Below, piece after piece: positions 9,727 to 30,347 of a stretch of DNA of 46,252 nucleotides. Location of the stretch: assembly GCA_016283945.1 (NCBI GenBank), contig JAEENW010000084.1:1-46252 (forward strand), read 5' to 3'. Made by a program: the position numbers and the translations under genes. Each line of letters starts with the position of its first letter. The first letter of the stretch is position 1. Below the pieces are notes generated by a model, which was not told the DNA's origin, did no database searches, and saw only the letters and a list, made by a program, of their open reading frames with translations. This stretch comes from Bacillota bacterium. Its GTDB lineage: Bacteria; Bacillota; Clostridia; Peptostreptococcales; Anaerovoracaceae.

Positions 9727-10065
9727 ATGACAAAGGAAGAAAAGATCTCGGCTCTGCACCGGCGCATGAAGACGCGCGTCAAACGGCGCGAAAGGGCAAA
9801 GACAGCCGCTCTGGGCGCGTCCTGCGCCTGCATGACGCTGTGCCTCGCGGTCATGGTCTTCGGATGTGACCCCGCTCATACCGGCGGTCCTGCGGGGATG
9901 TTCAGCGGGGCGACGATGCTCTTCGAGCACGCGGGAGTATACGTACTGACCGCCATCTGCGCCTTCTTCGCAGGCACAGCGGTCACCCTGATCTGCATTC
10001 GAAATCAAAGAAAGCGTCCGGGAAACAGAGGCGCTGAAGTATCTAACAGGGAGGAAAAGCCATGA
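9727..10065 (+). CDS. small two-TM membrane protein, paralogue of the 7882-8244 product
   Basis: AAGGAG lies 11 nt upstream of ATG 9727; the 9526 start in the ORF track runs through the repeat region. Product MTKEEKISALHRRMKTRVKRRERAK..., with TM2 AFFAGTAVTLICIR versus AFCLGSAVTILCYR in the paralogue. Its stop overlaps the ATG of the 2625-aa gene (ATGA). Confidence 0.7.
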   Translation: MTKEEKISALHRRMKTRVKRRERAKTAALGASCACMTLCLAVMVFGCDPAHTGGPAGMFSGATMLFEHAGVYVLTAICAFFAGTAVTLICIRNQRKRPGNRGAEVSNREEKP

Positions 10066-16000: not shown

Positions 16001-17939
16001 GAGCTACGACTTCGTGGTGAATGCGAGCGACTACTCCAGATGGAAGGTCATCGTCAAGAGCTCTCTGCCGGGCAGCGTGAGCTTCGAAAACACCGGGAAC
16101 GACGACATCGACGGAGTCGCGGTCAGCGGCAACAACGTCCTCGTTACGAATAAGGCCGCGGGCGACTTCTACATCGTGGTCGTCGACAGCGCCTCGGTAG
16201 ACACCGCGGCGGCGGCCGACAACTTCAGCGCGGTGAAGATCCCCTACGGGGCCTACCGCTTCGACAACGAGGCGCCGGAGATCGATACCGTGACCGCTTC
16301 CCTTGATCTCTACACCAAGGTCGTCTACATCGGCGTCAGCGACACCGACGACGCCGGCCACCAGACCGAAGGAGTCACCGTGACCGGAAAGGGCGTCATA
16401 CCGAACAGCGACGCGGGCTACGAGGCATATCCGTACAAGATGGTCTTCTTCGACAACGAGGAGGTCAGCGTGACGGCGACCGACGCGGCCGGCAACATAA
16501 AGGTCAAGAACATCGTCGTCACGGGCATAGATGTCGAGGCGCCCGAACTCACGGTGACCTGGTCGCCGTGCTTCACGGACGGAAACGGCCCGGATCAGTA
16601 CAGCCCGGCTGCGGGCCCGGTCAGGACCAACGTGACCGCTCACATCAGCAGCAGCAAGGATATCCTCAGGGTCAGGGCTAACGACGGCGACGAGCTCGTC
16701 TTCACGGACGGCAGGGCCGAGACGGCCTGGGGTTCGGTGGAATACACCTCGCAGATGGTGACCGTGCGCTTTACGACGGGCGCCGAGGTCTCCCTCGACG
16801 TCACCGTCACCGCCCCCAACAAAAAGAGCAATACCGCCACCGTCAGGCTCGCCGGCGGAGTCATAGACAAGGAGGCTCCGGCCGTGAGCGAGAGCGTGAC
16901 GCCGATGAAGCGCAGCGGGGCTGAGGCTCCGTACGCCGAGAGGCACAGGCTCAGCTTCAGCGAGGAGGTCTTCTGCATGGGCGAAGGCCCCGCGGGCAGG
17001 ATCTACAGCGCCGCGGAGCCCCTCGAGCTCGTGCTCTACAGGACCGACGAGGTCAGAGAGCTCGTGTTCAACGACAGGGCGGGCAACATCACCGTCTACA
17101 CGGTGAAGCCCTCCGCCGGCACAGTGCTGGACAACAGGGCTCCCGAGCTGGAGCTCGAGCTCGACGACGAGGCCAGCGCGACCAGCTCCGACGTCCGCGT
17201 GACTGTTATCTCCGACGAGTACGTCAGGCTCAGCTCCTCCGACAGCTCGGTCTCCTGCGGGACCGTGAGCGAGAGCGGGGACGGAAGCTGGAGCGGTACA
17301 GTCAGCGCCTCCGAGAACGGCACCTTCAGGATCAACGCGGCGGACAGGGCCGGAAACACGGCCTCCGCGGTGTTCACGGTCAACAACATAGACAAGACCC
17401 TGCCCCTGATGAGCTTTGACAAGTCGACCTACGGAGTGCTGCAGGACAGCGATTCGGCGTCTCTCAGGAACCTCCTGGACAGCGGAGTCACCGTCTGGGA
17501 CAACGTCGGAGTAAGGGAAGGATCCCTCAGCTACGACATGTCCGCGGTGGAGCTCGGCAAGCCCGGAGTCTACGAGGTCGTCTACAGCGTCGAGGACCTC
17601 GCGGGCAACACCGGCGAGAAGATCCGCTTCGTCAAGGTCATAGACAAGAACCTGCCCATGCTCACCGTGGACGGAGAGGTGACAGAGGAGGGCGGAACAT
17701 TCTCCCTCAGAGCCGGCACCCACATCCTCGGAGTCAGCGGTCTCAAGGACGGCAGCGAGCCCTACACCGTTCAGGTGGTAAAGGGCAAATACGCCAGAGG
17801 GCAGATGAAGTCGTTCCACGACAGCATCGAGATCGCGTCGGACGGCAGCATCGAGCTGACCCGCGGCGGCTTCTACACCGTACTGGTTACGACCCAGTCC
17901 AGGCAGACATATCGCACGCTTCTCTATGTCGAGCAGTAA
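10062..17939 (+). CDS. giant secreted protein (2625 aa), multi-module Ig-like architecture, no recognisable wall anchor
   Basis: Sec signal MKLKRLLSVVLTVCLIICAVPMSAMPVFA/DD. At least 9 D-x-x-A-P-x-(I/L/V) module boundaries (DTSAPVF, DSAPPTV, DRSAPLF, EEEAPSI, DNEAPEI, DVEAPEL, DKEAPAV, DNRAPEL and others). Acidic composition. GC3-biased codons throughout. No LPXTG, SLH or TM segment at the C-terminus. Confidence 0.85.
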   Translation: MKLKRLLSVVLTVCLIICAVPMSAMPVFADDGPGGYDEDPDRPPETTNYPDPEYSLFCRPELALFNARTSAKEDYFQSVMRSSHYNAVAAGYFKERDSGSVLKYDTVLKGYDVYLWDDFRDTELARLSDSYGQLKVGLAATLDCYDHKHTSGTHKYDVIGYNKLELTPLTGAMGYGSIISASGYSKTETSVRRGSAEFSDLPGGMYSVPGDSDAPGHYLGLECYREAISWPGGICDCGGKAKEFAVTFCDDSAPSLAEVSILNEAGDPCTDFGKGDKIVIKLRYDEPVRFADDRAAGKGKLCIGLMVENKGQGDWLYAHLTSLENDTLTFEYIVDPRDTKLYTVIGLDFASAADDGSALVHSSADIALRTIEEDGYVTVTKPGSVESPEGFTKARSYITDLAGNPISNEQPVKRFYIDCESPYAAKVSFDAELNNGDIKALRGVTELDPKDPKYGDPSDLYLGAGDLLGFNLYFNEQVFWEECEGYFIDNAYVVTNLRYDNGTYLELDIADFRFLVQASSLGKQFGRGRSNGLVSRLSTSRLPLPADSKTHLTVDDPSGKDEIKITSVHLEGSGIADSSGNLASSAFSPAQESYKLDTSAPVFRLGDAVQTGGANSTFTIPFIITDNEGGSGVEELPASLKLSDPNGSSGRIQYAVSAFAAPPAKASDWHDGIMGSDISFVQTSDWQYLHVKPDPEAHFDLGPDQELGISFKLQDYAGNRADTAAIGVEGVALDSAPPTVTSGDVSRSYDNSADRGTISVVLKAADASGIDSIKYQWLEPGSSGSDIDEDAWIQAVRQGGKWTASGTVDTGEVFRQDLWVYAEDGAGNAGVTGLGCFSYSLESTDYALDWSPAIMTAVKAGVSSLENGGALLFDVRLSGDGAHYIHFADSEESDVFAGSWQSAEFSDEDGYTFTELEDADDFLEDYTGNVNVTVYSGSADMFEELGEDGEDGLTVADSAVTEEFTLRQSPAGNTAEDVFSADIEDIFTPASAAELARLTNKVTELPWTVDSEERNPANTEGLRVTIDLGSDRNGWNYEDIDWKNSFISVYSDSDPYAAVSQYDLITDRDYCMLCATGSGPVQTLTLPEIDLEGEGVDYANLFLILARHSAPDAPYAIELYAGGEEFVFDGTEPGKLELQHLGRQYEDEEGRYYDLAFDPSSTIYIPTESTPVALSVEALRRCTSYNGDEPYTEYKSFDLYDKDVAGVIGAVDIVAWNADDPDEKISLACSWFDYSNNNGPGEDDPRYIYMYEDGSEALRSGKRLLRFGDATDASTGTIGVEAGKDNTVALQIVCANGSSSEICYITVHPVKIGLEGEVSIETPYDLDLKGNASVATVGPDEAYIVFSPDSGYNAEGLELFAAWGYLRTDGSYGFDSGIPMTMQGDGSWRAKVPNADFWSCLDHPDDYMTCGIINPMYDSEIGLTGYSIPMDFEDGYIDLTHHGNLSDPPPYYVVYAADQYGNKHAMGITDWAVVADRSAPLFTSDNMRPLGSIDTASDGTYTAAFELVDDSFYSWDSYSGEIISRPVTLEFFFDSKYAEAAGKPAARLTLSGIEDGFVWKDGDGNGTGIYEVTAEMVREGTFNSHNYYGEIATYAGGAKFARMIVTVKGAVSPEVTAPMPMTLFAKATDAHGNTNGWTMPDADFQYFDDIMDEGDYARFDNPGVVHARSVSGVKPKVTGTVYKRTGEGDDMALYVNFSAPVRPLESWIRSSDGEPEGYSTEWHDAFPICKDGSWNISYSDPFGNTYTEELALDGVFGEYGYDLSFSTLDWVSKETGVTVTAVEDDDSESLSGRAQYSEGGAFEDMPEATATFTQNVHEYQIVRSANGKNDILRVHIGNIVDGAPEETLYFRMDEFSRTYKEGTQPRGETFGNVTVSYRTDRETSPVGATEKTFREGDDDSFSFRYYDAATDKQYTINGSLGKYGISIGHFVPYEDEEAPSIDLVSVWKQRADGFIQADAFPGSADDDAVKASIAACGTAQSYDFVVNASDYSRWKVIVKSSLPGSVSFENTGNDDIDGVAVSGNNVLVTNKAAGDFYIVVVDSASVDTAAAADNFSAVKIPYGAYRFDNEAPEIDTVTASLDLYTKVVYIGVSDTDDAGHQTEGVTVTGKGVIPNSDAGYEAYPYKMVFFDNEEVSVTATDAAGNIKVKNIVVTGIDVEAPELTVTWSPCFTDGNGPDQYSPAAGPVRTNVTAHISSSKDILRVRANDGDELVFTDGRAETAWGSVEYTSQMVTVRFTTGAEVSLDVTVTAPNKKSNTATVRLAGGVIDKEAPAVSESVTPMKRSGAEAPYAERHRLSFSEEVFCMGEGPAGRIYSAAEPLELVLYRTDEVRELVFNDRAGNITVYTVKPSAGTVLDNRAPELELELDDEASATSSDVRVTVISDEYVRLSSSDSSVSCGTVSESGDGSWSGTVSASENGTFRINAADRAGNTASAVFTVNNIDKTLPLMSFDKSTYGVLQDSDSASLRNLLDSGVTVWDNVGVREGSLSYDMSAVELGKPGVYEVVYSVEDLAGNTGEKIRFVKVIDKNLPMLTVDGEVTEEGGTFSLRAGTHILGVSGLKDGSEPYTVQVVKGKYARGQMKSFHDSIEIASDGSIELTRGGFYTVLVTTQSRQTYRTLLYVEQ
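17391..17646 (+). other. DUF5011/HYR-like Ig domain near the C-terminus of the 2625-aa protein
   Basis: DKTLPLMSFDKSTYGVLQDSD...VWDNVGVREGSLSYDMSAVELGKPGVYEVVYSVEDLAGNTGEKIRFVKVID matches the D..G......V....G.Y.V.Y...D..GN pattern of that family. Confidence 0.55.
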
Positions 17940-17951
17940 GGAGGCAAGCAA

Positions 17952-20900
17952 ATGAGACTAAGCAAACGGATCCTTTCACTTTTCCTCTGTTTTGCCCTGA
18001 TCCTGCCGATGCTGCAGCTCCCGGCCTTCGCGGCCGAGGATGAGGCCGTCAGCATCGACAACGGATACATAGAGGCCAGCGTGTCGCTCAAGAACGGCGG
18101 TTTCCTCATCAAGACCGTCGAGGGCGACCTCCTGGAGAAGTCCGACAACAACAAGAAGCTGCTCTACCACAACGGGCACTACGACACCTCGTTCGTGTCC
18201 TTCAGGGTGGGCAGCGGCAAGGATGCCAGAGACTATCTCTTCGGAGGCAAGTACCCAGGCTCCAGCGGCGTCACCGTCGCGAAGACCGCCGGCGGCGAGA
18301 TCGCCGCGGTCTGGAGCGTGGACGGCATCACCTTCACCCAGCTCATATCGCTGGCTGAGGACAACTCCAACGAGCACGGAATGGTCTCGATAAGCCTGTC
18401 CGCCCGCAACGACAGCGGCAGGGCGGTCCCCGTCAAGGCGCGCGTCCTGCTGGACACCTGCCTGGGCGACAAGGACTACTCGTACTACCAGTTCACGGGC
18501 ATGGACTACACCCAGACCCTTGACCAGGAGCAGATCATCACCGATCCCGTGACCATCAGGAGCTTCTACTCGATAGACGACGTCGCCGATCCCAGGATCG
18601 CCGCCTACGTGGTCTCCGAGCCTGAGAAGGTCGCGATCGGCCACTGGAACGACCTGGCCTCGAGCCTCTTCGACTTCGCGCCGGACGAGGGGATGGGCTT
18701 CACCAACATATCCAACGAATTCCTCACCGCCGACAGCGCCTGCGCGATGTACTACGACCTCGGCACCGTCGCCAGCGGCGGAGCGGGCTCCGCGCTGCTG
18801 TTCTACGGCATCTACTCGAACAGCAAGGTCAAGCTGCAGAACAGCGTAGCGATCAACGCGGTCGCGCCCATGCGCCTGCAGCTCAACGGCGACAGGAGCG
18901 GCTACGTCAGGGAGAGCAGCGTCGGACAAGCCGACTTCTCCGTGACCGTCAGCGCCGAGAACTACAAGAGCGACAGCTCCCGCAAGCTCAGGGACGTCAA
19001 GCTCGCCGTGACCAGCACGAGCGGCCTGCGCCCCCTGAGCGACAGCGGGCAGCCCGTGAGCGGCCTCGACTTCAGCAGCGCCTCGCCGCTCACCGTTCCC
19101 TACGCCGAGATAGAGGAGGGCGAGACGGTCACCAAGACCGTGCACTTCCAGGCCAAGCCGCTCGAATCCGCGAGCTATGAGCGCATCACCATAGGCATGT
19201 ACGAGGGCGAGATCACAGGCGACAAGCTGCTCGGAGAGAAGGTCATATACCTGCTGCTGCCCGGGAATGACGGAAACATACCCAAGATCGGCTTCATCTC
19301 CATGAAGCCCGACACGGTCTACAACTCCGGCACCAGGCATCTCTACGCCGCCGTGAGCAACGACGTGCTGCTCGACGACTCTCTCTCCGCCGGCAACGCC
19401 GCCTTCAAGGCTTACAGCACCGACGGCAAGAAGTCCTGGAGCATACCCGCGTCGAACATAACCGTCAACGATGGCATCGCGGACATAGTGCTCGACGGCG
19501 AGCTGGAGCTGCCCGTGGGCAACTACTACCTGCAGCTCGAGTGGAGCGACGCCGCGGTTGACAAGGAGATCGTCGAGGCCAGGCATCAGAAGCAGACCGC
19601 CGAGTGCCTGAAGTTCGGCATCTCCGACAACCCGAAGTACAGGAACGACAGCTACGGAGTCCTCGCCGTGGTCAAGTACGGAAAGGGCACGGCGGACGTT
19701 CCATACTACTACCGCATAGAGAGGTTCGCCGACGAGGCGGGCTTCCAGAGCTTCTCCTCCGCGAAGGATCACGCCTGGAAGGAGATACTCATAGTCCTGC
19801 GCGGAGCCTTCACCGCCGACAACCGCTACCTCGTCAAGGAGAACGGCAAGACCACCGGAGGGCTCTACTACTCCGCGGTCAGCAAGAAGGTCGTGGATCC
19901 CAGGACCAGGAAGGAAAAGATCGACAACCCCGTCACGATCAACAACTGCGTCGACTTCGAGGGCGGGACCATCTCCATATACTACGAGAACTACGAGCAG
20001 GGCGTTTCCGGCGCTCTCGGCTCGCCTATACTGGTCGAGATCGACGGCGAGCTCTACACGAGCGGAGCCAGGACCTCGGTGTGGACAGGCAAGGCGGCTC
20101 TGACCAAGATAGAGCAGGGCAACGACTACTCGCTCATCCGCTACACGGCCAACGGAGTGCGCAAGCAGAGCAATTCAACGCCCATAACCCTGATCTGGCC
20201 GAACGTCTTCAGCGTGGCTCAGACCATCGCGGGCATGGTGTTCAAGCTGGCATACGGCCAGTTCGGAGTCATGGAGGTGGACGGCAAGGAGGCCGACAGG
20301 GTCATATCCTTCAGCGCCGGCCTGTCCCTGAGCTTCCTCAGCGTCGCAGATGACGACGATACCGACTACGGCACGGCGAGCTACTTCGGCCGCATGCAGG
20401 AGCTATGGAAGGACTGGCGGGGAGCGAGCATATACCAGTACGCTTACCACGGCAGCCGCTTCGAGAAGCTCACAGACCTGAGCATGAACGACCGCAACGC
20501 GGCGCCTGACACCCAGAAGGGCGCGCAGGCCTCGGTCATGATACAGGACATACTCTTCGGAAAGGAAGGACTGGTCGGGCTCAACTTCGAGGTCGACGTA
20601 ACCATACGCAACGTCATCGAGAACTTCGCCGCCATCGAGGGCAAACTCTCCATCAACACCATCAACGACTGGTCCTTCGGCCTCGCGGGCAACTGCAAGA
20701 TGACCGACAAGATCAAGATGGAGGCGAAGCTCAGCTTCAAGAGCAAGAACGACATACCCATCCCCGACGAGCTCTACTTCTACATAGGCGGGATCAAGCC
20801 GGGACTCAACGCCGACGGCTGCGGCGTCATCTGGATAACCGGAGCCGGCGGAGGCTTCTCCAACCTCTACGACACGATATTCTGCACGAGCGGGCTTCCG

Positions 20901-23900
20901 CCCCTCAAGCTGATAATGACCCTGAGCTTCAGCTTGATCCAGGTCCTCGACGGAACGGGCAAGCTGGAGATGTCCCTGAACGGTTTCACGCTGACCGGCA
21001 CCGACATCAAGGTCGCCGACACGATCGAGGTCATCAAGAAGGTGCAGCTGGGCTTCCAGTGGCTTCCCGACCTCAAGCTCCACGCGGCGATCTCCGTGAG
21101 CATGTTCGAGAAGTGCATCGAGGGCAACGGCTACATCATACTGGTCGGCAAGGATTACAGCGACTGGTTCTTCGAGATGTTCCTCAGAGCCGCGGTGAAG
21201 ATCCCCGCGTCGGTCCCCGCCGTTGGCGGCATGAACATCGCGGCGGCTGACCTGGGCATTAACACCGAGAAGATCTGGGGCGCCGTGGAGGTCGTCAAGA
21301 TCTACACCGGCATCACCTACTACTGGGGCGAGGAGGGAGTCAAGTTCGGCTCCTCCGGAGACAAGGCCTATCCGACCTATCCGAACCTCCTCTTCCAGGG
21401 CACCGGCGAGAAGGAGGGCGGCTATCCCGTAGCCTACGACGAGGAGAACGACCGCACCCTCTACATGAAGGTCGGCACCAACTTCGAGGCGCCGAGCTTC
21501 GCTCAGCCCATGTCCGAAGGCGACCTGATCCTGATGGACGCCAGGGGCATATGGTCTGACGGAGACAAGACCGCCCACAAGTTCAACCTGGGCGACTACA
21601 GAAGCGGGAACACCCAGTCCATGATCCAGATAAGCTTCGACGCCGAAAGCCTCGAGGAGGCCAGGGCGCTCGCCGCGGGCTTCAGCGTGACTGACGCGAA
21701 GGGCGGCGGAAACGAGCTGCCTCTGACCTTCTACGACGGAAGCAACATCGACGAGGCCGACGCGAACGTCACCTGGTACGAGGGTAAGGCGAGCATGGGC
21801 TTCTCCGTGACCGACCCGGCGCACTTCGGAAAGAACTGGTTCATAAGCACCGGAAGCGCCGCAGCGGACGTGCTGATGTACAACGTGCAGCCTCTGCCCG
21901 AGCTCGATTCCGTGTCGGCCGGCGGCGCGCTCGCCGCAGGCGGCAGCGCGGAGATCAGCTGGACCGGAAGTGCCCTTGACGAGCTCGACAGCGTAAGCTT
22001 CTTCCTCGCGGAGAGCGACGATCCCTCGAGCGACGCGGGCTATCCCCTCACCGGGGAGGACGGCTACGGCAGCCTTACCGACAGCGCCGTCATCTGCGGC
22101 GGAAGCGCCTCGCTGACCGTCCCGGCAGACATCCCCGCGGGGGACTACCTCGTGAGGGCGGTCTACTCCAAGGACGACCAGGTCAACGGAGTGATCCACA
22201 GCTCCTCCAGAGTGAGGCTCACCAACGACAACACCCCGGCCGCGATAGACAGCCTGAGCATAGCCTCCGCCGGAGACCTGAAGTTCAGCGTCACCGTGCC
22301 CGAGCCGGCTGACAGCGTGACCACGGTCTACGCGGTCAGCGTCTATGACGAGGACGGAAACGCGACCGACATAACCGATATGACCGTCGAGAAGGCGGAA
22401 GACGGCGCCACCCGCTTCGAGGTGGGCGGAAGCTATACCGCTCCAGTAAAGGCCGACGGCAGCGATCCCGACTCCGCCACCAGAGGCAGCGAGGTCTTCG
22501 GGCTCGAAGGCGGCAGGCGCTACATCATAGGCGTCACCCCCTGCGCGGCCGTTGACAGCGACGGCGACGGCGAGGCCGATACCATGGTGTACGGCAGGGA
22601 ATACCTCAGCCAGGCCGTGCTGCTCCCCGAGGCCGTGACCCCGGAGGTCAGGCTCAGCGCCGGCGGGAAGACCCTCACGTCTATAAGCGGCATGGCTGAC
22701 GGCGCCGCTGAGACCGTATTCGGAGAGAGCAGCCTCGACTTCAGCGCCAGCTTCTCCGAGGCCGTCAGCGGGACCTGGATCCTGGACGACAGCGGAGCCT
22801 TCGGAGAAGGGGAGGAGGGCGCCGGCGGAAGCTTCGGCCCCGCCCAGAGCGCGTCCTTCAGGATAGAAGGCCTGAGCGATGGCACTCACACCCTGACGCT
22901 CAGGGGCAGCGCGCTGGACGGAGACCGCTTCTCCGAGTCCTACAGCTTCACGGTGGATACCGAGGCTCCCAGGCTCATGATAAGCTCCCCGCTGAGCGGC
23001 AGCGCCTTCGGGGAGGGCGGACGCCTGCTCATCGAGGGCATCAGCTCCCCGGACGCCCTGCTTAGCGTAAGCATAGACGGCAGGCCCGTTATAAGCGGCA
23101 AGACCGTCTCTCAGGCCGGAGGAAGCATCGACAGCGAGGGCATCTTCTCCATAGAGCTCTCCATCCCCGAGTACAACAGCCGCGCCTCCCACAGCGTGAC
23201 GATCGCGGCTGAGGACGTAAACGGAAACAGCACCGAGCCCTACGAGGCCTTCGTCGTCAACCCGGCGCTCGGCGACCTCGCCGAGATCGTCATCATGGCT
23301 GACGGCACGGAGCCCCCGGAAGGAAACATCGACACTTCCGCCGCCGGCAGCGCCTCTCTCAGCCTCGCGGGCATCACGTCCAAGGGCATGCGCTTCGCGC
23401 TCGATCCCGACATGGTGCTCTGGAGCGCCAGCGCGGCCGAAGGCGAAGCGGTCGTCAGCAGCGACGGAAAGCTCAGCTACGCCGCGTCCACCAAGGGCTT
23501 CGTGACCGCGATGGTCGAGATCTCGTCCGGAGCTTACCGCAGCGCCTACCTGACGCTCGGCTCCGACAGCGCCGAGGGCTTCGTATCCGTGAGCTCCACC
23601 ATAGGCGGAAGCGCCTCGGGCGGCGGCTACTACGCGCCCGGCTCCGCGGTCGTCCTCAGAGCGTCGGCCGATACCGGCTACGCCTTCAAGGGCTGGCAGA
23701 TCAGCGGCGTCAGCGTCGCAGACAGCTCCGCGGCCGAGATAAGCTTCACCATGCCGGCGGGCAGCGTCAGCGCCAAAGCTCTGTTCGAGAGTGAAGGCGG
23801 TCCCAAGCCCCAGCCCGCGCCTTCGGGCGGCTCGGGCAGCGATTCCGTTCTCGGTTATAAGGACATCCCCGAGGGCGCCGATCCAATGCGCTACGTGGCG

Positions 23901-24569
23901 GTCTACACGGACGCCGGCGGCAGCGTAAAGACAGTGCCGATGTCCGCGGTCGACGGCAGAACGCTCATCTACCTGAAGCCCGAGGGAGATGCGGTGCGCT
24001 TCGAGGAGCGCCCGGCAGCCTTCAGCGACATAGAAGGGCACTGGGCAAAGGACTACGTCATAAGGGCGGCGGCGAGCGGCCTCTTCTCCGGAGTAGGCGA
24101 AGGAAAGTTCGATCCTCAGGGGACCATGACGAGGGCCATGTTCGTCACCGTGCTGTACCGCCTCGCGGGCAGTCCGAAGACGGGCGGAAGCTGCCGCTTC
24201 ACGGACGTCGCGAAGGGCTCCTGGTACGAGATCCCCGTGATCTGGGCTCAGGAGGGCGGCATCGTCAGCGGAGTCAGCGAGACCTCGTTCGACCCGAACG
24301 GAAGCGTGACCAGGGAGCAGATGTGCGCGCTGGTCGCGAGATACATACGCTCCGCGGGCTATAAGCTCGAGCTCGGCGTGAAGAAGAGCTTCACTGACGC
24401 GGCGAGCATCGCCTCCTGGGCAGCCGAAGATGTTGAGTTCTGCCAGAGGGCCGGCATCATCGAAGGAAAGTCCGGCGGCGGCTTCGATCCGAAGGGCTTC
24501 GCGACCCGCGCGGAAAACGCGGCGGTCATGAGGCGTCTGACGGAGGCCGTTATCCGCAGCCTGCGTTGA
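17952..24569 (+). CDS. giant secreted S-layer-homology protein (2205 aa)
   Basis: GGAGG RBS; ATG lies 12 nt after the stop of the previous gene. Signal peptide MRLSKRILSLFLCFALILPMLQLPAFA/AEDE. Three C-terminal SLH repeats. One D-T-E-A-P Ig-type boundary. Confidence 0.9.
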   Translation: MRLSKRILSLFLCFALILPMLQLPAFAAEDEAVSIDNGYIEASVSLKNGGFLIKTVEGDLLEKSDNNKKLLYHNGHYDTSFVSFRVGSGKDARDYLFGGKYPGSSGVTVAKTAGGEIAAVWSVDGITFTQLISLAEDNSNEHGMVSISLSARNDSGRAVPVKARVLLDTCLGDKDYSYYQFTGMDYTQTLDQEQIITDPVTIRSFYSIDDVADPRIAAYVVSEPEKVAIGHWNDLASSLFDFAPDEGMGFTNISNEFLTADSACAMYYDLGTVASGGAGSALLFYGIYSNSKVKLQNSVAINAVAPMRLQLNGDRSGYVRESSVGQADFSVTVSAENYKSDSSRKLRDVKLAVTSTSGLRPLSDSGQPVSGLDFSSASPLTVPYAEIEEGETVTKTVHFQAKPLESASYERITIGMYEGEITGDKLLGEKVIYLLLPGNDGNIPKIGFISMKPDTVYNSGTRHLYAAVSNDVLLDDSLSAGNAAFKAYSTDGKKSWSIPASNITVNDGIADIVLDGELELPVGNYYLQLEWSDAAVDKEIVEARHQKQTAECLKFGISDNPKYRNDSYGVLAVVKYGKGTADVPYYYRIERFADEAGFQSFSSAKDHAWKEILIVLRGAFTADNRYLVKENGKTTGGLYYSAVSKKVVDPRTRKEKIDNPVTINNCVDFEGGTISIYYENYEQGVSGALGSPILVEIDGELYTSGARTSVWTGKAALTKIEQGNDYSLIRYTANGVRKQSNSTPITLIWPNVFSVAQTIAGMVFKLAYGQFGVMEVDGKEADRVISFSAGLSLSFLSVADDDDTDYGTASYFGRMQELWKDWRGASIYQYAYHGSRFEKLTDLSMNDRNAAPDTQKGAQASVMIQDILFGKEGLVGLNFEVDVTIRNVIENFAAIEGKLSINTINDWSFGLAGNCKMTDKIKMEAKLSFKSKNDIPIPDELYFYIGGIKPGLNADGCGVIWITGAGGGFSNLYDTIFCTSGLPPLKLIMTLSFSLIQVLDGTGKLEMSLNGFTLTGTDIKVADTIEVIKKVQLGFQWLPDLKLHAAISVSMFEKCIEGNGYIILVGKDYSDWFFEMFLRAAVKIPASVPAVGGMNIAAADLGINTEKIWGAVEVVKIYTGITYYWGEEGVKFGSSGDKAYPTYPNLLFQGTGEKEGGYPVAYDEENDRTLYMKVGTNFEAPSFAQPMSEGDLILMDARGIWSDGDKTAHKFNLGDYRSGNTQSMIQISFDAESLEEARALAAGFSVTDAKGGGNELPLTFYDGSNIDEADANVTWYEGKASMGFSVTDPAHFGKNWFISTGSAAADVLMYNVQPLPELDSVSAGGALAAGGSAEISWTGSALDELDSVSFFLAESDDPSSDAGYPLTGEDGYGSLTDSAVICGGSASLTVPADIPAGDYLVRAVYSKDDQVNGVIHSSSRVRLTNDNTPAAIDSLSIASAGDLKFSVTVPEPADSVTTVYAVSVYDEDGNATDITDMTVEKAEDGATRFEVGGSYTAPVKADGSDPDSATRGSEVFGLEGGRRYIIGVTPCAAVDSDGDGEADTMVYGREYLSQAVLLPEAVTPEVRLSAGGKTLTSISGMADGAAETVFGESSLDFSASFSEAVSGTWILDDSGAFGEGEEGAGGSFGPAQSASFRIEGLSDGTHTLTLRGSALDGDRFSESYSFTVDTEAPRLMISSPLSGSAFGEGGRLLIEGISSPDALLSVSIDGRPVISGKTVSQAGGSIDSEGIFSIELSIPEYNSRASHSVTIAAEDVNGNSTEPYEAFVVNPALGDLAEIVIMADGTEPPEGNIDTSAAGSASLSLAGITSKGMRFALDPDMVLWSASAAEGEAVVSSDGKLSYAASTKGFVTAMVEISSGAYRSAYLTLGSDSAEGFVSVSSTIGGSASGGGYYAPGSAVVLRASADTGYAFKGWQISGVSVADSSAAEISFTMPAGSVSAKALFESEGGPKPQPAPSGGSGSDSVLGYKDIPEGADPMRYVAVYTDAGGSVKTVPMSAVDGRTLIYLKPEGDAVRFEERPAAFSDIEGHWAKDYVIRAAASGLFSGVGEGKFDPQGTMTRAMFVTVLYRLAGSPKTGGSCRFTDVAKGSWYEIPVIWAQEGGIVSGVSETSFDPNGSVTREQMCALVARYIRSAGYKLELGVKKSFTDAASIASWAAEDVEFCQRAGIIEGKSGGGFDPKGFATRAENAAVMRRLTEAVIRSLR
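23577..23789 (+). other. divergent InlB B-repeat-like domain in the 2205-aa protein
   Basis: GFVSVSSTIGGSASGGGYYAPGSAVVLRASADTGYAFKGWQISGVSV...AKALFE fits the G.V...G.Y..GS.V.L.A....GY.F.GW pattern. Confidence 0.5.
24021..24566 (+). other. three tandem SLH (S-layer homology) domains
   Basis: The three repeats are FSDIEGHWAKDYVIRAAASGLFSGVGEGKFDPQGTMTRAMFVTVLYRL, FTDVAKGSWYEIPVIWAQEGGIVSGVSETSFDPNGSVTREQMCALVARY and FTDAASIASWAAEDVEFCQRAGIIEGKSGGGFDPKGFATRAENAAVMRRL. Confidence 0.9.
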
Positions 24570-24648
24570 TCGGGATCCGCTTATAAACGGGACACGAGCT
24601 GAAAGGCATCCTCCGTGACATACTGCCTGCGCTGATCGGGGATACAGG

Positions 24649-26211
24649 ATGGAAAAAACAACTATCAAAAAATCGATACGGCGCATAGCGCTGCTGCTCA
24701 CAGTGCTTCTGGCGCTGGCGGGGTCCTCCGATGCGGCGTTCGCAGTAAACGCGGACGCCGCTCCCCCGGCATGCCCCCGCGTCCGTATCGCCTTCATAGA
24801 CAGCGGGATCAGCACCAGGCACATAGACGAGAGCCTGGTCGAGCCCGGAAGAAACTACGTTTTCCCTGAAGCGGATACCCGGGACAGGATAGGCCACGGC
24901 ACCGCTGCCGCGAGCCTCGTGCTTGGTTCCGCCGATCAGGGAGTGCCCGGAGCGCCTTGCTTCGCTCCGGAAAACGGCCAGGGGAGCTTCGCTGAAGACT
25001 TCTCCGGCCTGCCTGAAGAGCATCTCCCCGTCCCCCCAGGGGCGATGAAAGCAGCCGCGGCCGTCCCGCTCGTAGTCATCGACGCCTATCCTACGGGCGC
25101 GATAAAAAACGGCGGGACGGAAGCGCTCTGCCGCGCGATCTTCGACGCGGTGGACGAATTCGGCTGCAGCATTATAAACATAAGCCTTTCGACCTCCGAG
25201 GACAGCGAGGAGCTAAGGAGAGCCTGCGCCTACGCGGAGGAGAAGGGCGTAGTCATAGTGAGCGCCGCGGGAAACGACGGAGAAGGCGGACCTGCATACT
25301 ACCCGGCGGCCTACGGCAGCGTGATATCCGTGGGAAGCTCCAGCGGCGGCGCCGCGGCCGGCTTCTCGGGAAACGGAGCGTACGTGCTGGCTGAGGGCGT
25401 CGATCTGACTGCGGCGAGCTGCAGGAACGGGAGCGCTCCCGTGACGGTGAGCGGGACATCTTACTCCTGCGCGATCGTGACCGGCGTCTGCGCCGGGATC
25501 AGGGCGCGTTATCCGGACATGACGCCTGCTGAGGTCCGCGAGGCGCTCGCGCAGCTTGCCGAGGACATGTACGAGCCCGGCTTCGACGCGAGGAGCGGCT
25601 GGGGAAGGGTCTCGAGGGACGCTGAGGTCCCGTATCCCTTCAGGGATCTGCCTGCCGGAAGCCAATATCTGGAAGCGGCTCTGTCCCTGTCCGGGATGGG
25701 CATTATGAACGGCTGCGGCGGGCTCTTCATGCCGGACGCCCCGATGACGAGGGCTATGACGGTCTGCGCTCTGCACAGGCTGGCCGGAAGCCCCGAGCCG
25801 GCGGGGTACGCGAAGCGCGTCGAGGACAGCGAAGCAGATCGGCCCGCTGAGGAAGCGAAATCGGCTGATGCAGGGCATTCTGTGGAAGCCGCGTTGCCGG
25901 ATGAATGGTACTCCGAAGCCGCCATGTGGGCGGCTGAGCAGGGGATAACAGAGAGCGTCGGATCCGCGCCCGGTGAGGCCGTCAGCGCGGAGCAGCTCCG
26001 GGCCGCTCTGAAGAGAATGGCTGAGATACTGAATGTCAGTGCGGTGATAGAAGACGGGGCTGCGGAAGACGAGACTTGTGCAGATCCCGCGGAGCATGAG
26101 ATGCCGGAAGGACCGGCAGATACCGCGGAGCCCGCGGTATCCGGAAAGCCGCTGACGCGCGGTGAAGCCGCGCTGATGATCGAAGCGTTCACGAGGATCA
26201 TGGAACCCTGA
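24649..26211 (+). CDS. secreted S8-family (subtilisin-like) serine protease with C-terminal SLH-type repeats
   Basis: Signal peptide ...LALAGSSDAAFA. Catalytic Asp (IAFIDSGIS), His (GHGTAAASLV), oxyanion Asn (SAAGNDG) and Ser (SGTSYSCAIVTG). C-terminal FRDLPAGSQYLEAALSLSGMGIMNGCGGLFMPDAPMTRAMTVCALHRL is one clear SLH, followed by two degenerate SLH-like units. Confidence 0.85.
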   Translation: MEKTTIKKSIRRIALLLTVLLALAGSSDAAFAVNADAAPPACPRVRIAFIDSGISTRHIDESLVEPGRNYVFPEADTRDRIGHGTAAASLVLGSADQGVPGAPCFAPENGQGSFAEDFSGLPEEHLPVPPGAMKAAAAVPLVVIDAYPTGAIKNGGTEALCRAIFDAVDEFGCSIINISLSTSEDSEELRRACAYAEEKGVVIVSAAGNDGEGGPAYYPAAYGSVISVGSSSGGAAAGFSGNGAYVLAEGVDLTAASCRNGSAPVTVSGTSYSCAIVTGVCAGIRARYPDMTPAEVREALAQLAEDMYEPGFDARSGWGRVSRDAEVPYPFRDLPAGSQYLEAALSLSGMGIMNGCGGLFMPDAPMTRAMTVCALHRLAGSPEPAGYAKRVEDSEADRPAEEAKSADAGHSVEAALPDEWYSEAAMWAAEQGITESVGSAPGEAVSAEQLRAALKRMAEILNVSAVIEDGAAEDETCADPAEHEMPEGPADTAEPAVSGKPLTRGEAALMIEAFTRIMEP

Positions 26212-26294
26212 GAACGGCAAGACGTTGTGAACACACCCGGACCTGCCCAAGGCGGCCGTTTCAGGCCTCCGGCGGCGGCAGGGGATAAGAAGAG

Positions 26295-26329
26295 CCGGGG
26301 CGCTGAAGGACGGCGCTCCGGTTGTGTTT
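26295..26329 (+). terminator. rho-independent terminator after the S8 protease gene
   Basis: CCGGGGCGC / GCGCTCCGG 9-bp stem (one G-U pair) followed by TTGTGTTT. The complementary side is followed by a T-rich CTCTTCTTAT, so it may act in both directions. Confidence 0.6.
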
Positions 26330-26333
26330 AAAA

Positions 26334-26373
26334 CCGATAACTATTCCTAAAATCATAATTTTCGGTATAGTTA
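26334..26373 (+). repeat. AT-rich 40-nt motif, copy A (second copy at 39317-39355)
   Basis: CCGATAACTATTCCTAAAATCATAATTTTCGGTATAGTTA versus CCGATATATTCCTAAAATATCATATTTTCGGTATTCTTA. The two are collinear, with only three short indels and two substitutions. Confidence 0.8.
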
Positions 26374-27075
26374 TAGCGGACAGGGGGTGTCATAACGGTT
26401 CTCCGGGTCCCCCGAAGTCCCCCGGAGCCTCAAAGTCCCCCGGGCGGCTCTGGGGCGCTCTGGAGGACTCACATCGATTAAACAGTATTCTTCTGTTACT
26501 GAACGGCGCGCTTGCCTCGGCGTCATCCGCTGCGCGCCGCATACGCTTTAATGGATCCCGCGGTGGTAATCGATATGAGCTTCATCATGCCCGGCAGTCT
26601 GTATATCCCGCAGGCATCGTCAGCTCCGAGGGTCTGCATCTCCTCCGGAGCCTTTTCGGCGCTCCGCAAGCTGCTTATAAGCACGAGGCTCTGAGAGCCG
26701 TTTTAAGCGACTTTAATACCCCTCGTCGATATATGATACCTCCGCGCTCAAAGTCCTCTCAGACGAAGTCTCAGTTCTCTGAGGCTGAACGCCGGATAAT
26801 GCGCTCGGATGGACCGGCTGCCTGGCTCCTCCGCGGACTTGCGCAAGCTCCGCCGGCACTTCCCGGGATCAGCCGGCGCATAAGGCTTCTGACCGGTCCC
26901 GCGCACGGCAGCCTGCCCGGTTTGGACGTCAGTTCACACATTCACTCAGGGCTGAGCGCCGTGAACCGCTGACATGCTGAAACAGCAAAGTGCTTAACCG
27001 TATACTGTTACAGTCAATATCTTGTATCGGCCCGGATCCATGGCTTCAGGGGCCGTTTTGCGCCCGTACCCTGCG

Positions 27076-27089
27076 CGAACATTTGTTCT
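27076..27089. promoter_or_regulatory. LexA (Cheo-type SOS) box 4
   Basis: CGAACATTTGTTCT fits GAAC-N4-GTTC and is 13/14 identical to box 2 at 28754. It overlaps the stop codon of the SprT-like gene. Confidence 0.65.
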
Positions 27090-27615
27090 AACGGGGTAGG
27101 AGCTTTCTGGTCGCCATGGGTTCGCAGCCGACCTCCAGACAGGCTGCCTTCCAGACCCGGTCGTGCCCGTGCCGGACGCTTCCGTCCCTCAGGTACACCA
27201 GCATGTGCGCGTACTCATGCCTGATGACGTCGGTGAACAGCCCGGCGTCTCCGAGTATGCGCGCCGACACCGCTATCTCCATGCCGCCCCAGGATGCCCC
27301 TTCCCTCCTCAGGGTAAAGGTCCCGAGGCGCCTCACCATGCGGGTGGAGATCCTGACGGAGCAGGAGCTGCTGTCGACGCCGCAGAGCGCGTCTAGCCTG
27401 CGGTATTCTTCCCTTATAAGGGCAATCGCGCGCTCCTTTTCCTCTTTTGTGACGCTTACAGGAGGCGCCGGAGGACGGCGCGATGAGCGGCGGGACGAGG
27501 GACGCCCCGGCCCGCCGGCTTTACCGGGCTTCGCGCCGCGGCCGGAGCTTCTGGATCTGCCGCGCTGAGGGAGCCCGAACAGGCCTTTTCCGAAGAGGCT
27601 CAGCGTATGGACCAT
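27088..27615 (-). CDS. SprT-like zinc metalloprotease domain protein with a basic N-terminal tail
   Basis: C-terminal VIRHEYAHMLVYL...HGHDRVWKAACLEVG (HExxH then HG..W) and RISTRMVRRLGTF are SprT-family signatures. The N-terminal ~55 aa are Arg/Ser/Pro/Gly-rich. The 5' end overlaps the SIMPL gene by 16 nt; the start codon is uncertain. Confidence 0.7.
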   Translation of the reverse strand: MVHTLSLFGKGLFGLPQRGRSRSSGRGAKPGKAGGPGRPSSRRSSRRPPAPPVSVTKEEKERAIALIREEYRRLDALCGVDSSSCSVRISTRMVRRLGTFTLRREGASWGGMEIAVSARILGDAGLFTDVIRHEYAHMLVYLRDGSVRHGHDRVWKAACLEVGCEPMATRKLLPR

Positions 27616-28259
27616 ACGGCGACCAGGCTGCAGTCCGCGTTCACGTCCGCGGGGGTGATGTCCATGGCGAAGGACTCCTCAGCAACGGCGTCGTTCATCT
27701 TGGCCATGCGAAGGCTCATCGGCCTGACCGTGAGATCTGAGCCTATCTCAGAGGAATCCACGCTGACGAGCCTGTCGAGATCGACTCCGCCTGCGGTAGC
27801 CAGCACCTCGGCTCTCTCGCGGGCGTCGGCGAGAGCTGCCTTCAGGAGCTCGTCCCTGACCCCGTCACGGTTCTTTACGGTATAGGCGATGTGGAACTCC
27901 GGATCGGCCTCGCAGGACGCCAGAGACGCCAGGCAGCGGCCCAGGAGCTCGTTCTCTATGGAGAAGCTCACGCTCATCTGATGGTCGAACCTGTAGCCGG
28001 CGAAGCGCTGCCTGTACTCGCCGTTCTCGTCCCTGTAGGACTCGTAGCGGTCGGATATGTTGAAGGAGCCGGTCTTGACGTCCTCGGGATCGAAGCCGAG
28101 CCCGGTGAATATGGCCTTGACCGAGGCCGACTTCTCAGAGGCCATCTTTATGGTCTCCCTGTAGTCGGAGCACTCGCCGCTGATGTTCATATTGAGCACT
28201 GTGGTGTCCGGCGCGAGGCTGAGCCTGCTCCTGCCGGTCACTCTGATGTACCTGTCCAT
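27600..28259 (-). CDS. SIMPL-domain (DUF541) protein without a signal peptide
   Basis: AGGAGG lies 6 nt upstream of ATG 28259 (MDRYIRVTG...). The product's overall pattern matches the SIMPL/26-kDa immunogenic protein family, but no hydrophobic leader is present. Confidence 0.6.
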   Translation of the reverse strand: MDRYIRVTGRSRLSLAPDTTVLNMNISGECSDYRETIKMASEKSASVKAIFTGLGFDPEDVKTGSFNISDRYESYRDENGEYRQRFAGYRFDHQMSVSFSIENELLGRCLASLASCEADPEFHIAYTVKNRDGVRDELLKAALADARERAEVLATAGGVDLDRLVSVDSSEIGSDLTVRPMSLRMAKMNDAVAEESFAMDITPADVNADCSLVAVWSIR

Positions 28260-28274
28260 TTCGTTCCTCCTGTG

Positions 28275-28302
28275 AATAAACGGCGGCAGTTTGCCTGCCG
28301 CC
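28275..28302 (-). terminator. stem-loop plus U-tract between the YneA-like gene and the SIMPL gene (terminator or attenuator)
   Basis: Minus strand reads GGCGGCAG-GCAAA-CTGCCGCC followed by GTTTATT, only about 15 nt before the SIMPL RBS. Confidence 0.5.
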
Positions 28303-28388
28303 ATCTATGATACCACACGCTGATGGAGTTTTCGAGTTTTACGCCTTCAGGGCTGCCCCGCCGGGAGCCAGCCAGCGACGCGCCGGCT

Positions 28389-28685
28389 CTAGCTCTGAGG
28401 GATGAGGAGGTTCTGCCCGGGGACCAGAGTATAAGCGCTGACGTCGTTGATGGCGCAGATGTCCTTTATGACGAGGCGAACGTCCTTGTCCGAGGGTCCG
28501 TAGGTCCTGGCGAGATCCCAGAGCGTGTCGCCGCTGACGACCTCGACGCTGACGTAGGTCTTCTCGGGATCGCTGTAGGCGCGGTCCATGCCGGTGAGAT
28601 TGCCGATGATGAGGCTCAGCGCCAGCAGGACGCAGGCCGTGAATACCGTGAATCTGAACTTGTTGGCTATCCTGTATCTCTTCAT
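28389..28685 (-). CDS. YneA-like SOS cell-division inhibitor (N-terminal TM helix plus LysM domain)
   Basis: The 98-aa product is MKRYRIANKFRFTVFTACVLLALSLIIGNL..., followed by a LysM domain (VEVVSGDTLWDLARTY...INDVSAYTLVPGQNLLIP). GAGG lies 7 nt upstream of ATG 28685. Preceded by a LexA-box-covered promoter. The longer ORF-track start (28775) runs through the promoter. Confidence 0.8.
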   Translation of the reverse strand: MKRYRIANKFRFTVFTACVLLALSLIIGNLTGMDRAYSDPEKTYVSVEVVSGDTLWDLARTYGPSDKDVRLVIKDICAINDVSAYTLVPGQNLLIPQS

Positions 28686-28724
28686 GTCTGTACCTCGCTT
28701 TCGAAGTGAGCATGGGGGCGTCAA

Positions 28725-28738
28725 AGAACGTTTGTTCG
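28725..28738. promoter_or_regulatory. LexA (Cheo-type SOS) box 1
   Basis: AGAACGTTTGTTCG (GAAC-N4-GTTC), just downstream of the -10 element on the minus strand. Confidence 0.8.
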
Positions 28739-28745
28739 CAGTGCT

Positions 28746-28775
28746 ATAATAGCAGAACATTTGTTCTTTTGTCAA
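28746..28775 (-). promoter_or_regulatory. sigma-A type promoter of the YneA-like operon
   Basis: Minus strand reads TTGACA (28775-28770), an 18-nt spacer, then TATTAT (28751-28746). Confidence 0.7.
28754..28767. promoter_or_regulatory. LexA (Cheo-type SOS) box 2
   Basis: AGAACATTTGTTCT lies inside the -35/-10 spacer of the minus-strand promoter. Confidence 0.8.
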
Positions 28776-28785
28776 TGATCAATTT

Positions 28786-28799
28786 CGAACATTCGTTCT
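28786..28799. promoter_or_regulatory. LexA (Cheo-type SOS) box 3
   Basis: CGAACATTCGTTCT lies upstream of the -35. A perfect TATAAT (plus strand 28829-28834, read on the minus strand) sits about 30 nt further upstream and may be a second promoter. Confidence 0.75.
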
Positions 28800-28848
28800 T
28801 TTTTTGTTTCCCGCCTCTTTACGGTACCATTATATCAGGATGCCTGTA

Positions 28849-28877
28849 CAAAAATAGCGACAGCCAAAGCTGCCGCT
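28849..28877 (-). terminator. rho-independent terminator after the ynbB-like gene
   Basis: Minus strand reads AGCGGCAGC-TTTG-GCTGTCGCT followed by ATTTTTG. Confidence 0.6.
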
Positions 28878-28983
28878 TTAGATCGGTATAAGCGTTGATA
28901 TCTCAACGTTTTTCAGAGTGCGCGCCCTGTCGGATATCGAGATCCCGGCACGCAGGGCTTCCGCAGGCCGCCTCTCCGCTGCC

Positions 28984-30270
28984 CTACAGGAGTCCCCTGT
29001 CCTTCAGGGACTGGAGCACCTTCATGAGCCCGAACTTGGCGTGGTCGTAGCTCAGCGCCCCCTGGAAGTACGCGGTATAGGGCTCCCTGAGTGGAGCGTC
29101 CGCAGAGAGCTCCATGGTGCTGCCCTGGACGAAGGAACCGGAGGCCATGATGATGCTGTCCTCGTAGCCGGCCATCTCGCCGGCCTCGGGAGCGTAATGG
29201 GCGTTTATAGGAGCCGCGGCCTGCACGCCCTCGCAGAAGGCGGTGAGCTGCTCCTCGGACTTCATGCGTATCGCGGTGACGACATCGTTCCTCGGATCCT
29301 CGGCTCTGGGGCTGACCTCGTAGCCGAGCTTCTCGAAGGCCTTGGCGAAGAGAGCGGCGCCCTTGATCGCCTCGCAGACGGTGCGCGGAGCCATGAATAT
29401 GCCCTGGAGTATCCTCCTGGTCTGGTCGTACATGAGGCCGGCGTCGGTGCCGATCCCGGGCGCGATGACCCTGTAGGAGACGGTCTCGACGAGATCAGCT
29501 CTTCCGGCGACGTAGCCGCCTCCCATGGCGATGCCGCCGCCGGGGTTCTTCATCAGGGAGCCCGCCATTATGTCGGCGCCGACGGCCACAGGCTCCTTCG
29601 TGTCGAGGAACTCGCCGTAGCAGTTGTCGACCATGCATATGATACCGGGCTTCACGGACTTGCAGGCGGCCGCCCACTCGCGTATCTCGGGAATGCTGAA
29701 GGCGTACCTGAAGGAGTAGCCTATGGACCTCTGAAGCACGGCGACCCTGGTGTTATCCTTTATCGCGGCCTTGACGCCCTCGATATCGATCTTCATATCC
29801 GCGGTGAGCTCGACCTTGTTGAAGCTAACGCCGTAGCTCCTGAGAGAGCCGTTGCCGTCGCCCTTGAGGCCGATGACGGTCTCCATGGTGTCGTAGGGCT
29901 CGCCCGTGCAGTACAGGAGCTCATCGCCTGGGCGCAGCAGCCCCAGATAGCAGCACGCCAGAGCGTGGGTCCCGTCGCAGATAAAGGGACCGACTATGCA
30001 GCTCTCGGTCTCAAAGGCGGAGGCGAACACCTTGCCGCAGACGGCGCGGCCCGGATCGTCGTGCCCGTAGCCGTTCGCCCAGGCGAAGTGAGTGTCGCTG
30101 ACGTAGTTGTCGTGAAACGCCCTGAGCACCTTGTACTGGTTGTATTCCGCTGTGCGCTCGTAGCGGGCGAAGACCTCCGCGATCTCCCTCTCGGCCTCGT
30201 CGGCCATAGCTGAGACCTCATGATCGATCCCGTAGTTCCTCTTAAGAAAATCCTTTGTAAGCTGATCCAT
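28984..30270 (-). CDS. methionine gamma-lyase family / aluminium-resistance family PLP enzyme (YnbB-like)
   Basis: Roughly 428-aa product with blocks typical of this family: FHDNYVSDTHFAWANGYGHDDPGR, ICDGTHALA and SLMKNPGGGIA (PLP-Lys region). Start set at ATG 30270; the TTG at 30297 has no RBS. Confidence 0.7.
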   Translation of the reverse strand: MDQLTKDFLKRNYGIDHEVSAMADEAEREIAEVFARYERTAEYNQYKVLRAFHDNYVSDTHFAWANGYGHDDPGRAVCGKVFASAFETESCIVGPFICDGTHALACCYLGLLRPGDELLYCTGEPYDTMETVIGLKGDGNGSLRSYGVSFNKVELTADMKIDIEGVKAAIKDNTRVAVLQRSIGYSFRYAFSIPEIREWAAACKSVKPGIICMVDNCYGEFLDTKEPVAVGADIMAGSLMKNPGGGIAMGGGYVAGRADLVETVSYRVIAPGIGTDAGLMYDQTRRILQGIFMAPRTVCEAIKGAALFAKAFEKLGYEVSPRAEDPRNDVVTAIRMKSEEQLTAFCEGVQAAAPINAHYAPEAGEMAGYEDSIIMASGSFVQGSTMELSADAPLREPYTAYFQGALSYDHAKFGLMKVLQSLKDRGLL

Positions 30271-30347
30271 ACTGCTGAAACTGTCCTTTGTCCTCAATGG
30301 TTATAACATAATATTTTTACGGTCGATTACGCGCGTGCGTCCCGTCT

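Follow-up and report, generated by a model that had tools for sequence, protein, structure and literature searches.

A putatively LexA-controlled yneA-like gene and, behind it, a probably separate SIMPL-SprT gene pair in an Anaerovoracaceae genome

In a 46,252-nucleotide contig of a Bacillota bacterium from the family Anaerovoracaceae (assembly GCA_016283945.1, contig JAEENW010000084.1; the whole stretch is called the window here), three perfect GAAC-N4-GTTC LexA boxes cover one promoter 5' of a gene for a 98-residue protein with a transmembrane (TM) segment and a LysM domain, and a SIMPL gene and then an overlapping SprT-like HExxH protease gene lie downstream. The best explanation overall, to which we assign a probability of roughly 0.55, is that the locus consists of two head-to-tail units, a yneA checkpoint and a coupled SIMPL-SprT pair. 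LexA very probably controls the YneA-like gene, while the evidence leans slightly toward a SIMPL-SprT pair that is separately promoted and recently acquired, and not a core member of the SOS response. An earlier note on this DNA had assigned SIMPL and SprT to the damage response as a new composition for the operon; the linkage of the three genes proved real, but their joint membership in the SOS response went beyond what the locus shows. The principal features, with scores from a weight matrix (PWM) described below, are these:

28829..28837, minus strand: extended -10 TGaTATAAT, candidate second promoter
28787..28798: distal LexA (Cheo-type) box GAACGAATGTTC, 12 nt 5' of the -35, PWM 19.9
28746..28775, minus strand: main promoter, TTGACA, 18 nt, TGcTATTAT (consensus scan)
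28755..28766: central LexA box GAACAAATGTTC, within the promoter spacer, PWM 25.6, top site of the genome
28726..28737: proximal LexA box GAACAAACGTTC, 9 nt 3' of the -10, around the transcription start (pattern search and PWM)
28389..28685, minus strand: yneA-like gene, 98 aa (Pfam LysM, E = 3.5e-9)
28307..28335, minus strand: internal promoter-like element, TCGAAA, 17 nt, TGTGgTATCAT, without a LexA box (consensus scan)
28274..28306, minus strand: GC-rich hairpin GGCGGCAG / CUGCCGCC, then GUUUAUUC, probable yneA terminator
27600..28259, minus strand: SIMPL/DUF541 gene, 219 aa, no signal peptide (Pfam PF04402, E = 1.6e-29)
27088..27615, minus strand: SprT-like zincin gene, 175 aa (Pfam PF10263, 40.6 bits against a cut-off of 25.6)
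27077..27088: fourth LexA box GAACAAATGTTC, overlapping the sprT stop codon, third-strongest site of the genome by PWM

The spacer between yneA and SIMPL (129 nt, with zero differences between two strains of the species) holds the evidence that divides the locus in two. An extended -10, TGTGgTATCAT, stands at 28317-28307, and a TRTG-extended -10, preceded at 17 nt by a weak -35, occurs in all three species that carry the trio of genes, namely the window species and two sister species designated L109 (TGTGtTATCAT) and L068 (TAGAAA-17-TGTGaTAAAAT); the remaining spacer does not align. Placed 2-5 nt past this -10, each species has a GC hairpin with a U-rich tail, of -21.7 kcal/mol in the window, -16.8 in L109 and -18.5 in L068. 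The hairpin proper of the window (28306-28278, z = -6.0) lies 85 nt past the yneA stop codon, with its 5' arm overlapping the predicted start of the internal promoter, and its sequence differs wholly from that of the L068 hairpin while structure and position are retained. No LexA box with a PWM score of at least 12 was found in 28260-28388 or in the aligned regions of L109 and L068. An extended -10 ahead of SIMPL that lacks a LexA box, which the earlier note had named as speaking against its own proposal, was thus found, conserved in three species and accompanied by a hairpin.

Because yneA is monocistronic in every other relative examined, a terminator behind it is to be expected. We propose that most yneA transcription stops at the GC hairpin with its U-rich tail, and that SIMPL and SprT would be transcribed mainly from their own LexA-box-free, TRTG-extended -10 promoter, starting within the hairpin 5' arm. 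SOS induction would then raise SIMPL-SprT expression solely by read-through of a moderate terminator. The transcript boundaries of both units are predictions from these elements.

The control region upstream of yneA is of a different kind. A search for exact GAAC-N4-GTTC boxes in the minus-strand reading of 26900-29100 returned 28726-28737, 28755-28766, 28787-28798 and 27077-27088, so that the boxes reported in the earlier note at the promoter were recovered, one base away from the coordinates given there for the 12-mer cores. The four boxes span 1.7 kb and are the sole matches across the 46-kb window, against 0.39 expected; at least four matches occurred in 0 of 100 shuffles. The draft genome (1.82 Mb, 61% G+C) contains 16 matches in all, compared with about 23 expected from base composition, and an A/T-rich box centre is seen in five of the 16, four of which are at the yneA-SIMPL-SprT locus. 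As the note had stated, no lexA gene is adjacent; it was located on a separate contig (C191:956-1597) with a one-mismatch box of its own, CGAACAAATGTTT, which indicates that the organism has a Cheo-box SOS system. The one remaining perfect A/T-centred LexA box of the genome (G000 contig C102:6806-6817, GAACATATGTTC, PWM 23.4) directly precedes a TGATATCAT -10 and an 87-residue open reading frame (MKLLAKPIDAVVIFVDREQP...), a candidate for a further SOS gene.

A consensus scan bears out the minus-strand TTGACA-N18-TATTAT promoter beneath the three boxes, with the -35 at 28775-28770 and a TG-extended -10 at 28751-28746 (11 of 12 consensus matches), and alignment shows it unchanged across four species. 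The promoter operators are 29 and 32 nt apart. When the control regions of the window, the two sister species and one more distant genus member are aligned, they show a near-invariant succession of box, TTGAC or TTTAC -35, box, TGCTAT at the start of the -10, and box; the distal box is kept in L109, L068 and G098. Two strains of the window species are identical over all 298 nt of the spacer upstream of yneA, against 0.8-2% divergence in neighbouring genes. The perfect TATAAT at 28834-28829 that had also been pointed out is real, is TG-extended, and aligns with extended -10 elements in the sister species (TGcTATACT in L109, TGtTATCAT in L068). Since the distal LexA box lies about 24-35 nt 3' of the predicted start belonging to this upstream -10, yneA probably has two promoters under LexA control. 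Further upstream, the ynbB-like gene (28984-30297) ends in a terminator hairpin and T-run at 28856..28877 on the minus strand, conserved in L109 and L068.

The 98-residue protein, preceded by a ribosome-binding site GAGG at 28696-28693, has a single hydrophobic segment at residues 12-30 (Kyte-Doolittle hydropathy 2.21) and a LysM domain at residues 48-96, in agreement with the TM-plus-LysM architecture read from it earlier. Its top NCBIfam match is the YneA model NF010723, over profile positions 8-86 of 87, at 46.2 bits, which is below the curated equivalog cut-off of 60 bits. Of the 151 genomes sampled from the family, 122 encode a homologue; among the 100 good-quality genomes the count is 90. 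In 23 of 29 yneA loci fetched from relatives, between one and three perfect boxes stand immediately 5' of the gene, and these boxes were used to build the PWM. A survey of the yneA upstream regions with this matrix found at least one site in 29 of 29 loci, at least two in 27 and at least three in 19, at a typical spacing of 29-31 nt; the survey is somewhat circular, the matrix having been trained on boxes of the surveyed loci, which counts against it, although the imperfect sites nevertheless lie at the expected spacing. None of lexA, SIMPL or SprT was found within 1.5 kb of yneA in these 29 loci. In relatives, including one species of the same genus, alaS-ruvX faces yneA, followed by ynbB, a tyrosine recombinase, miaA and mutL. 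The proposal of a LexA-controlled YneA-like inhibitor has therefore gained support, both from the near-full-length match to the YneA model and from the triple-operator promoter found across the family; from the observed features, their conservation and their distribution, we infer LexA binding and division inhibition.

LexA dimers on the three operators would shut the strong TTGACA-18-TGcTATTAT promoter, and probably also the upstream extended -10 promoter. DNA damage would lead to LexA self-cleavage and so to production of the 98-residue TM-plus-LysM protein, which, by analogy with Bacillus subtilis YneA, would block septal wall synthesis; YneA blocks FtsW-dependent septal peptidoglycan synthesis (PMC13396833). 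The locus shares with the B. subtilis lexA / yneA-yneB-ynzC unit a small bitopic TM-plus-LysM protein and Cheo-type operators over its promoter. It differs in that lexA is not adjacent, yneB and ynzC are lacking, the operators are three and regular, there are probably two promoters, and yneA is monocistronic in nearly all relatives. LexA-controlled YneA-like LysM proteins are already known in Clostridia, from C. thermocellum (PMC8457756), where Clo1313_1450, under LexA_1449, is likewise a clostridial LysM protein with a conserved upstream LexA site; Clo1313_1450 is divergent from lexA, whereas in the window's family lexA is unlinked. The yneA part thus adds a member to a known type, distinct by its unlinked lexA and its regular triple operator.

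In contrast to yneA, the pair behind it is rare. The SprT-like gene is absent in 148 of the 151 family genomes and in five of the seven species of the genus, and SIMPL occurs in 16 other family genomes, elsewhere in the genome and never beside yneA. A scan of 185,579 species representatives yielded 29 loci of the window's SprT subfamily, only one of which, L068, has the trio, and a scan of metagenome contigs for further trio lineages returned the window species again and no other. L068 belongs to metagenome-assembled genome (MAG) RGIG1629, the same genome as G153, and has two perfect boxes and one near-perfect box, the same promoter and the full trio. Identity to the window is 61% for yneA, 52% for SIMPL and 61% for SprT, a range of protein identity at which synonymous sites between the species are saturated. 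The flanking MATE and YnbB genes, however, are 84-86% identical, marking L068 as a sister species whose module genes evolve faster than their neighbours. L109 is a third species (SIMPL 80% identical) with the same layout up to its contig end. In the short contigs L066 and L067 the 3' end of SIMPL abuts the sprT start, and in one fourth lineage this junction is all that is seen of the arrangement; L066 has only the C-terminal 64 residues of SIMPL before sprT, and the rest of that contig gives no SIMPL match. A survey for yneA-SIMPL-sprT linkage, as the earlier note had suggested, therefore finds it to be real and recurrent in L068 and L109, but limited to close relatives within one genus, and with flanks 84-86% identical the shared gene order may be simple descent and is weak evidence of function. 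An apparent independent LysM-SprT linkage in L094 was a false tblastn match; the upstream open reading frame encodes a hydrophobic membrane protein, presumably TspO-like, as judged by eye.

Outside the clade with the trio, no LexA box was found near SIMPL homologues (18 loci, 69 kb scanned) or near SprT homologues (28 loci, 267 kb scanned). The pattern suggests that SIMPL-SprT is a recent insert directly behind yneA in a narrow sub-clade of one genus, placed, as we picture it, between yneA and a conserved non-coding element. About 16 of 29 loci of the family (L062, L014-L042) have, 20-250 nt 3' of yneA and in the same orientation, an element of the form AAGGTAT, about 20 nt, AAAAAGTCGCTTAAA(A/T)CG ... 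AGAGCCTCG. It is possibly a non-coding RNA common to the family, or else a 3' element belonging to yneA.

Within the pair, SIMPL (ribosome-binding site AGGAGG at 28271-28266) matches PF04402 over residues 5-211 at 104.1 bits, against a gathering score of 25.2, and a hydropathy scan finds no hydrophobic segment in it. The absence of the usual signal peptide, which the earlier note had singled out, is genuine but not unusual, a signal-less SIMPL being the norm among the family homologues checked. Escherichia coli YggE and Brucella BP26 likewise consist of the Pfam SIMPL domain over the whole protein. These known members are periplasmic and have signal peptides, whereas the window SIMPL and all family homologues checked are cytoplasmic, and the window protein falls far under the cut-off of the YggE model (29.7 against 249 bits). 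Pfam and reading-frame coordinates confirm the SprT-like HExxH gene and its 16-nt overlap with SIMPL. The SIMPL stop and sprT start overlap in four lineages, by TAATG or TGATG junctions or by the 16-nt overlap, a pattern that points to translational coupling of the two genes in every lineage. Relative to strain L010, 10 of 13 differences in SIMPL and six of eight in the SprT domain fall at third codon positions, a bias indicating purifying selection on both genes. SIMPL is probably a partner or regulator of the SprT-like protease.

The SprT-like protein comprises a basic Gly/Ser/Arg/Pro-rich tail (residues 1-55, net charge +12) and a protease domain (residues 56-175) with the motif HEYAH at 27219-27205 and, downstream, H149 and H151; H133, E134, H137 and H151 are invariant in alignments of homologues. 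Those homologues begin at window residue 55-60, and most have a C-terminal CxxC...CxxC zinc ribbon that is missing from the window protein and in the sister species. Neither the window nor L109 retains the canonical sprT ATG, so translation must start at an ATG within the last SIMPL codons. This alternative start adds a Gly/Ser/Arg/Pro/Lys-rich tail of 55-66 residues (net charge +12 in the window, +9 in L109), and its frame is the only one open in both. An ATG at a Val-Trp codon junction near the SIMPL C-terminus (L068:3980-4001; window 27613-27615) is in frame with sprT in both species, opening a leader MGDKRPV-MDKYEKER in L068 and the 55-residue tail in the window; given this shared in-frame ATG, the basic tail looks like the expansion of a pre-existing short leader.

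An AlphaFold2 model (predicted local distance difference test score, pLDDT, of 81) is confident for residues 56-170 and shows the tail as disordered. In the Protein Data Bank (PDB) its fold is matched best by human SPRTN (6mdx_A); the probability is 1.0, yet the E-value is 2.4e-3, the TM-score over the whole model 0.38 and the root-mean-square deviation 5.6 Å. With the DNA-protein-crosslink proteases SPRTN and Wss1 the window protein has in common the SprT-like Pfam domain, HExxH and the downstream His. Yet its sequence identity to SPRTN is 14% alone, it has none of the ZBD, SHP, PIP or UBZ modules, and it carries the basic N-terminal tail in place of its own family's C-terminal zinc ribbon. 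The gene would thus encode an intact cytoplasmic zinc protease of SPRTN fold, in which this lineage has exchanged the ribbon for a basic, disordered N-tail. Fold, charge and neighbours make a nucleic-acid-associated substrate the most likely one, and for the tail a role as a DNA-binding module is only suggestive. No bacterial SprT of the window's subfamily that is LexA-regulated, functionally characterised or activity-assayed appeared in the literature searched.

Elsewhere the subfamily has a different partner, sprT directly following nrdR in 14 of the 29 homologue loci, all in Oscillospiraceae MAGs (L076, L080, L081, L083, L085-L092, L095, L096); a 4-nt overlap is seen in L006/L090. These proteins belong to the same SprT-like subfamily, at 45-56% identity, and are tied to a regulator of DNA metabolism, but they retain the CxxC...CxxC ribbon and have neither a SIMPL partner nor nearby LexA boxes. 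A conserved nrdR-sprT operon was absent from the literature searched.

The fourth LexA box, at the sprT stop codon, has a counterpart in the sister species, free of mismatches in L067 and with one in L068; there it stands about 15 nt 5' of the promoter (TTGAAA-17-TATTTA) that precedes a PNPOx-like gene. That gene is missing behind the window sprT, and its sole homologue in the genome is on contig C6. The box was considered as the operator of the PNPOx-like gene and rejected in that role, since 0 of 30 PNPOx-like loci of the family carry a LexA box; it accordingly tracks the 3' end of sprT. It might serve as operator for whatever follows it, as a roadblock, or in regulating the pair.

Several observations weigh against two separate units. 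The trio is co-oriented in three species even though its proteins have diverged to 52-61% identity beside flanks at 84-86%. The U-tracts past the hairpins are not continuous (GUUUAUUC, CUUUGUGC, CAUUUUCA), which may make for weak termination, and some read-through and SOS input is plausible; the read-through might even be extensive and the internal promoter inactive. In both lineages with sequence past sprT a strong LexA box is present there, bracketing the pair, and the two-unit model leaves this box unexplained. All this suits a single SOS operon, yneA-SIMPL-sprT, in which the hairpin would act as an attenuator or stabiliser, the pair would be damage-induced effectors that, for example, remove DNA-trapped proteins, and the fourth box would close the module. 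The same box, third-strongest in the genome, is unchanged between strains while the following 250 nt differ by 13%, and the protease's best fold match to SPRTN and its basic tail, together with the linkage of its homologues to nrdR, whose product regulates the supply of DNA precursors, also fit such an operon. It has to contend, however, with the conserved hairpin and LexA-free extended -10 between yneA and SIMPL, with monocistronic yneA in all other relatives examined, with the lack of a LexA box near any other SIMPL or SprT homologue in the loci scanned, with the missing pair in five of seven genus species, and with the close relationship of the three species, which makes their synteny weak as functional evidence. 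We consider the single operon, with substantial SOS induction of the pair by read-through, possible but doubtful. The new operon composition accordingly has partial support, from three close species, and the conserved terminator and promoter speak partly against it. A bolder form, in which the LexA-bracketed pair would be a damage-inducible bacterial counterpart of SPRTN, the basic-tailed zinc protease clearing trapped or crosslinked proteins, SIMPL serving as its adaptor or inhibitor, expression coming by read-through from the yneA promoter, and nrdR-sprT being the housekeeping version, strikes us as unlikely.

Phages and plasmids, too, encode SprT-like zincins, among them anti-restriction proteases of the ArdC type. 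ArdC is a single-stranded-DNA-binding SprT-type protease (PMC7213743), and it counts toward another view, that the pair is a remnant of mobile-element or phage cargo lying beside yneA by chance, with no link to chromosome repair. SprT homologues do occur on phage-like contigs of many small unannotated genes (L005, L008), both proteins match PHROG families of unknown function, and the distribution of the pair is patchy. No integrase, repeat or other mobile-element gene was found beside the pair, though, the tyrosine recombinase close by keeps its syntenic position throughout the family, PADLOC gives no defence-system match for any of the three proteins, both genes are under purifying selection, and about half of the homologues sit in core chromosomal nrdR-sprT operons. 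A mobile remnant is therefore highly improbable, and two head-to-tail units, with the pair a recent arrival behind the yneA terminator, remain the reading we prefer.

The sequence behind sprT has features of its own. Between two strains, 26228-26828 shows 0 differences in 600 nt, and 26829-27073 shows 33 differences and two indels (13%), where genes differ by about 2%; a sharp boundary thus divides a frozen from a hypervariable segment (26228-27073). A 31-nt block, AAAGTCGCTTAAAACGGCTCTCAGAGCCTCG, at 26684-26714 on the minus strand, inside the 0.86-kb gene-free stretch 26212-27076, is 100% identical at L068:4991-5021 and represents the element described above 3' of yneA in the family, and at the far end of this stretch an AT-rich palindromic block of about 44 nt (26337-26380) is conserved at L068:5472-5515. 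Rfam assigned no family in 24000-30000 at gathering thresholds, and in 26200-27100 only a chance-level HgcE match reached an E of 1 or less. In distant relatives (G098, G071, G128) ruvX faces yneA directly, where about 26 kb (1828-26211) intervenes in the window. Of this, L068 keeps homologues of 4708-7341 but has no counterpart of the roughly 19 kb at 7338-26211, with its sigma/PrsW module, genes for giant surface proteins and S8 subtilase. A large species-level difference thus falls at the site of SIMPL-SprT (1828-26211 compared with L062-L064 and L068).

For bacterial SprT-like proteases, to which the literature searched assigns no function, these loci offer a testable lead, with one subfamily sitting in nrdR operons and, in a few species, beside an SOS inhibitor together with a cytoplasmic SIMPL. 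Should the pair prove damage-induced, it would offer a candidate for a bacterial protease acting on DNA-trapped proteins; if not, the locus warns against inferring an operon from the mere fact that genes follow an SOS promoter in tandem. The yneA unit documents how an SOS division checkpoint is built in an uncultured rumen and gut family of Clostridia, with three even operators, a conserved promoter and lexA unlinked, and its operators form a clean set for defining LexA regulons in these genomes.

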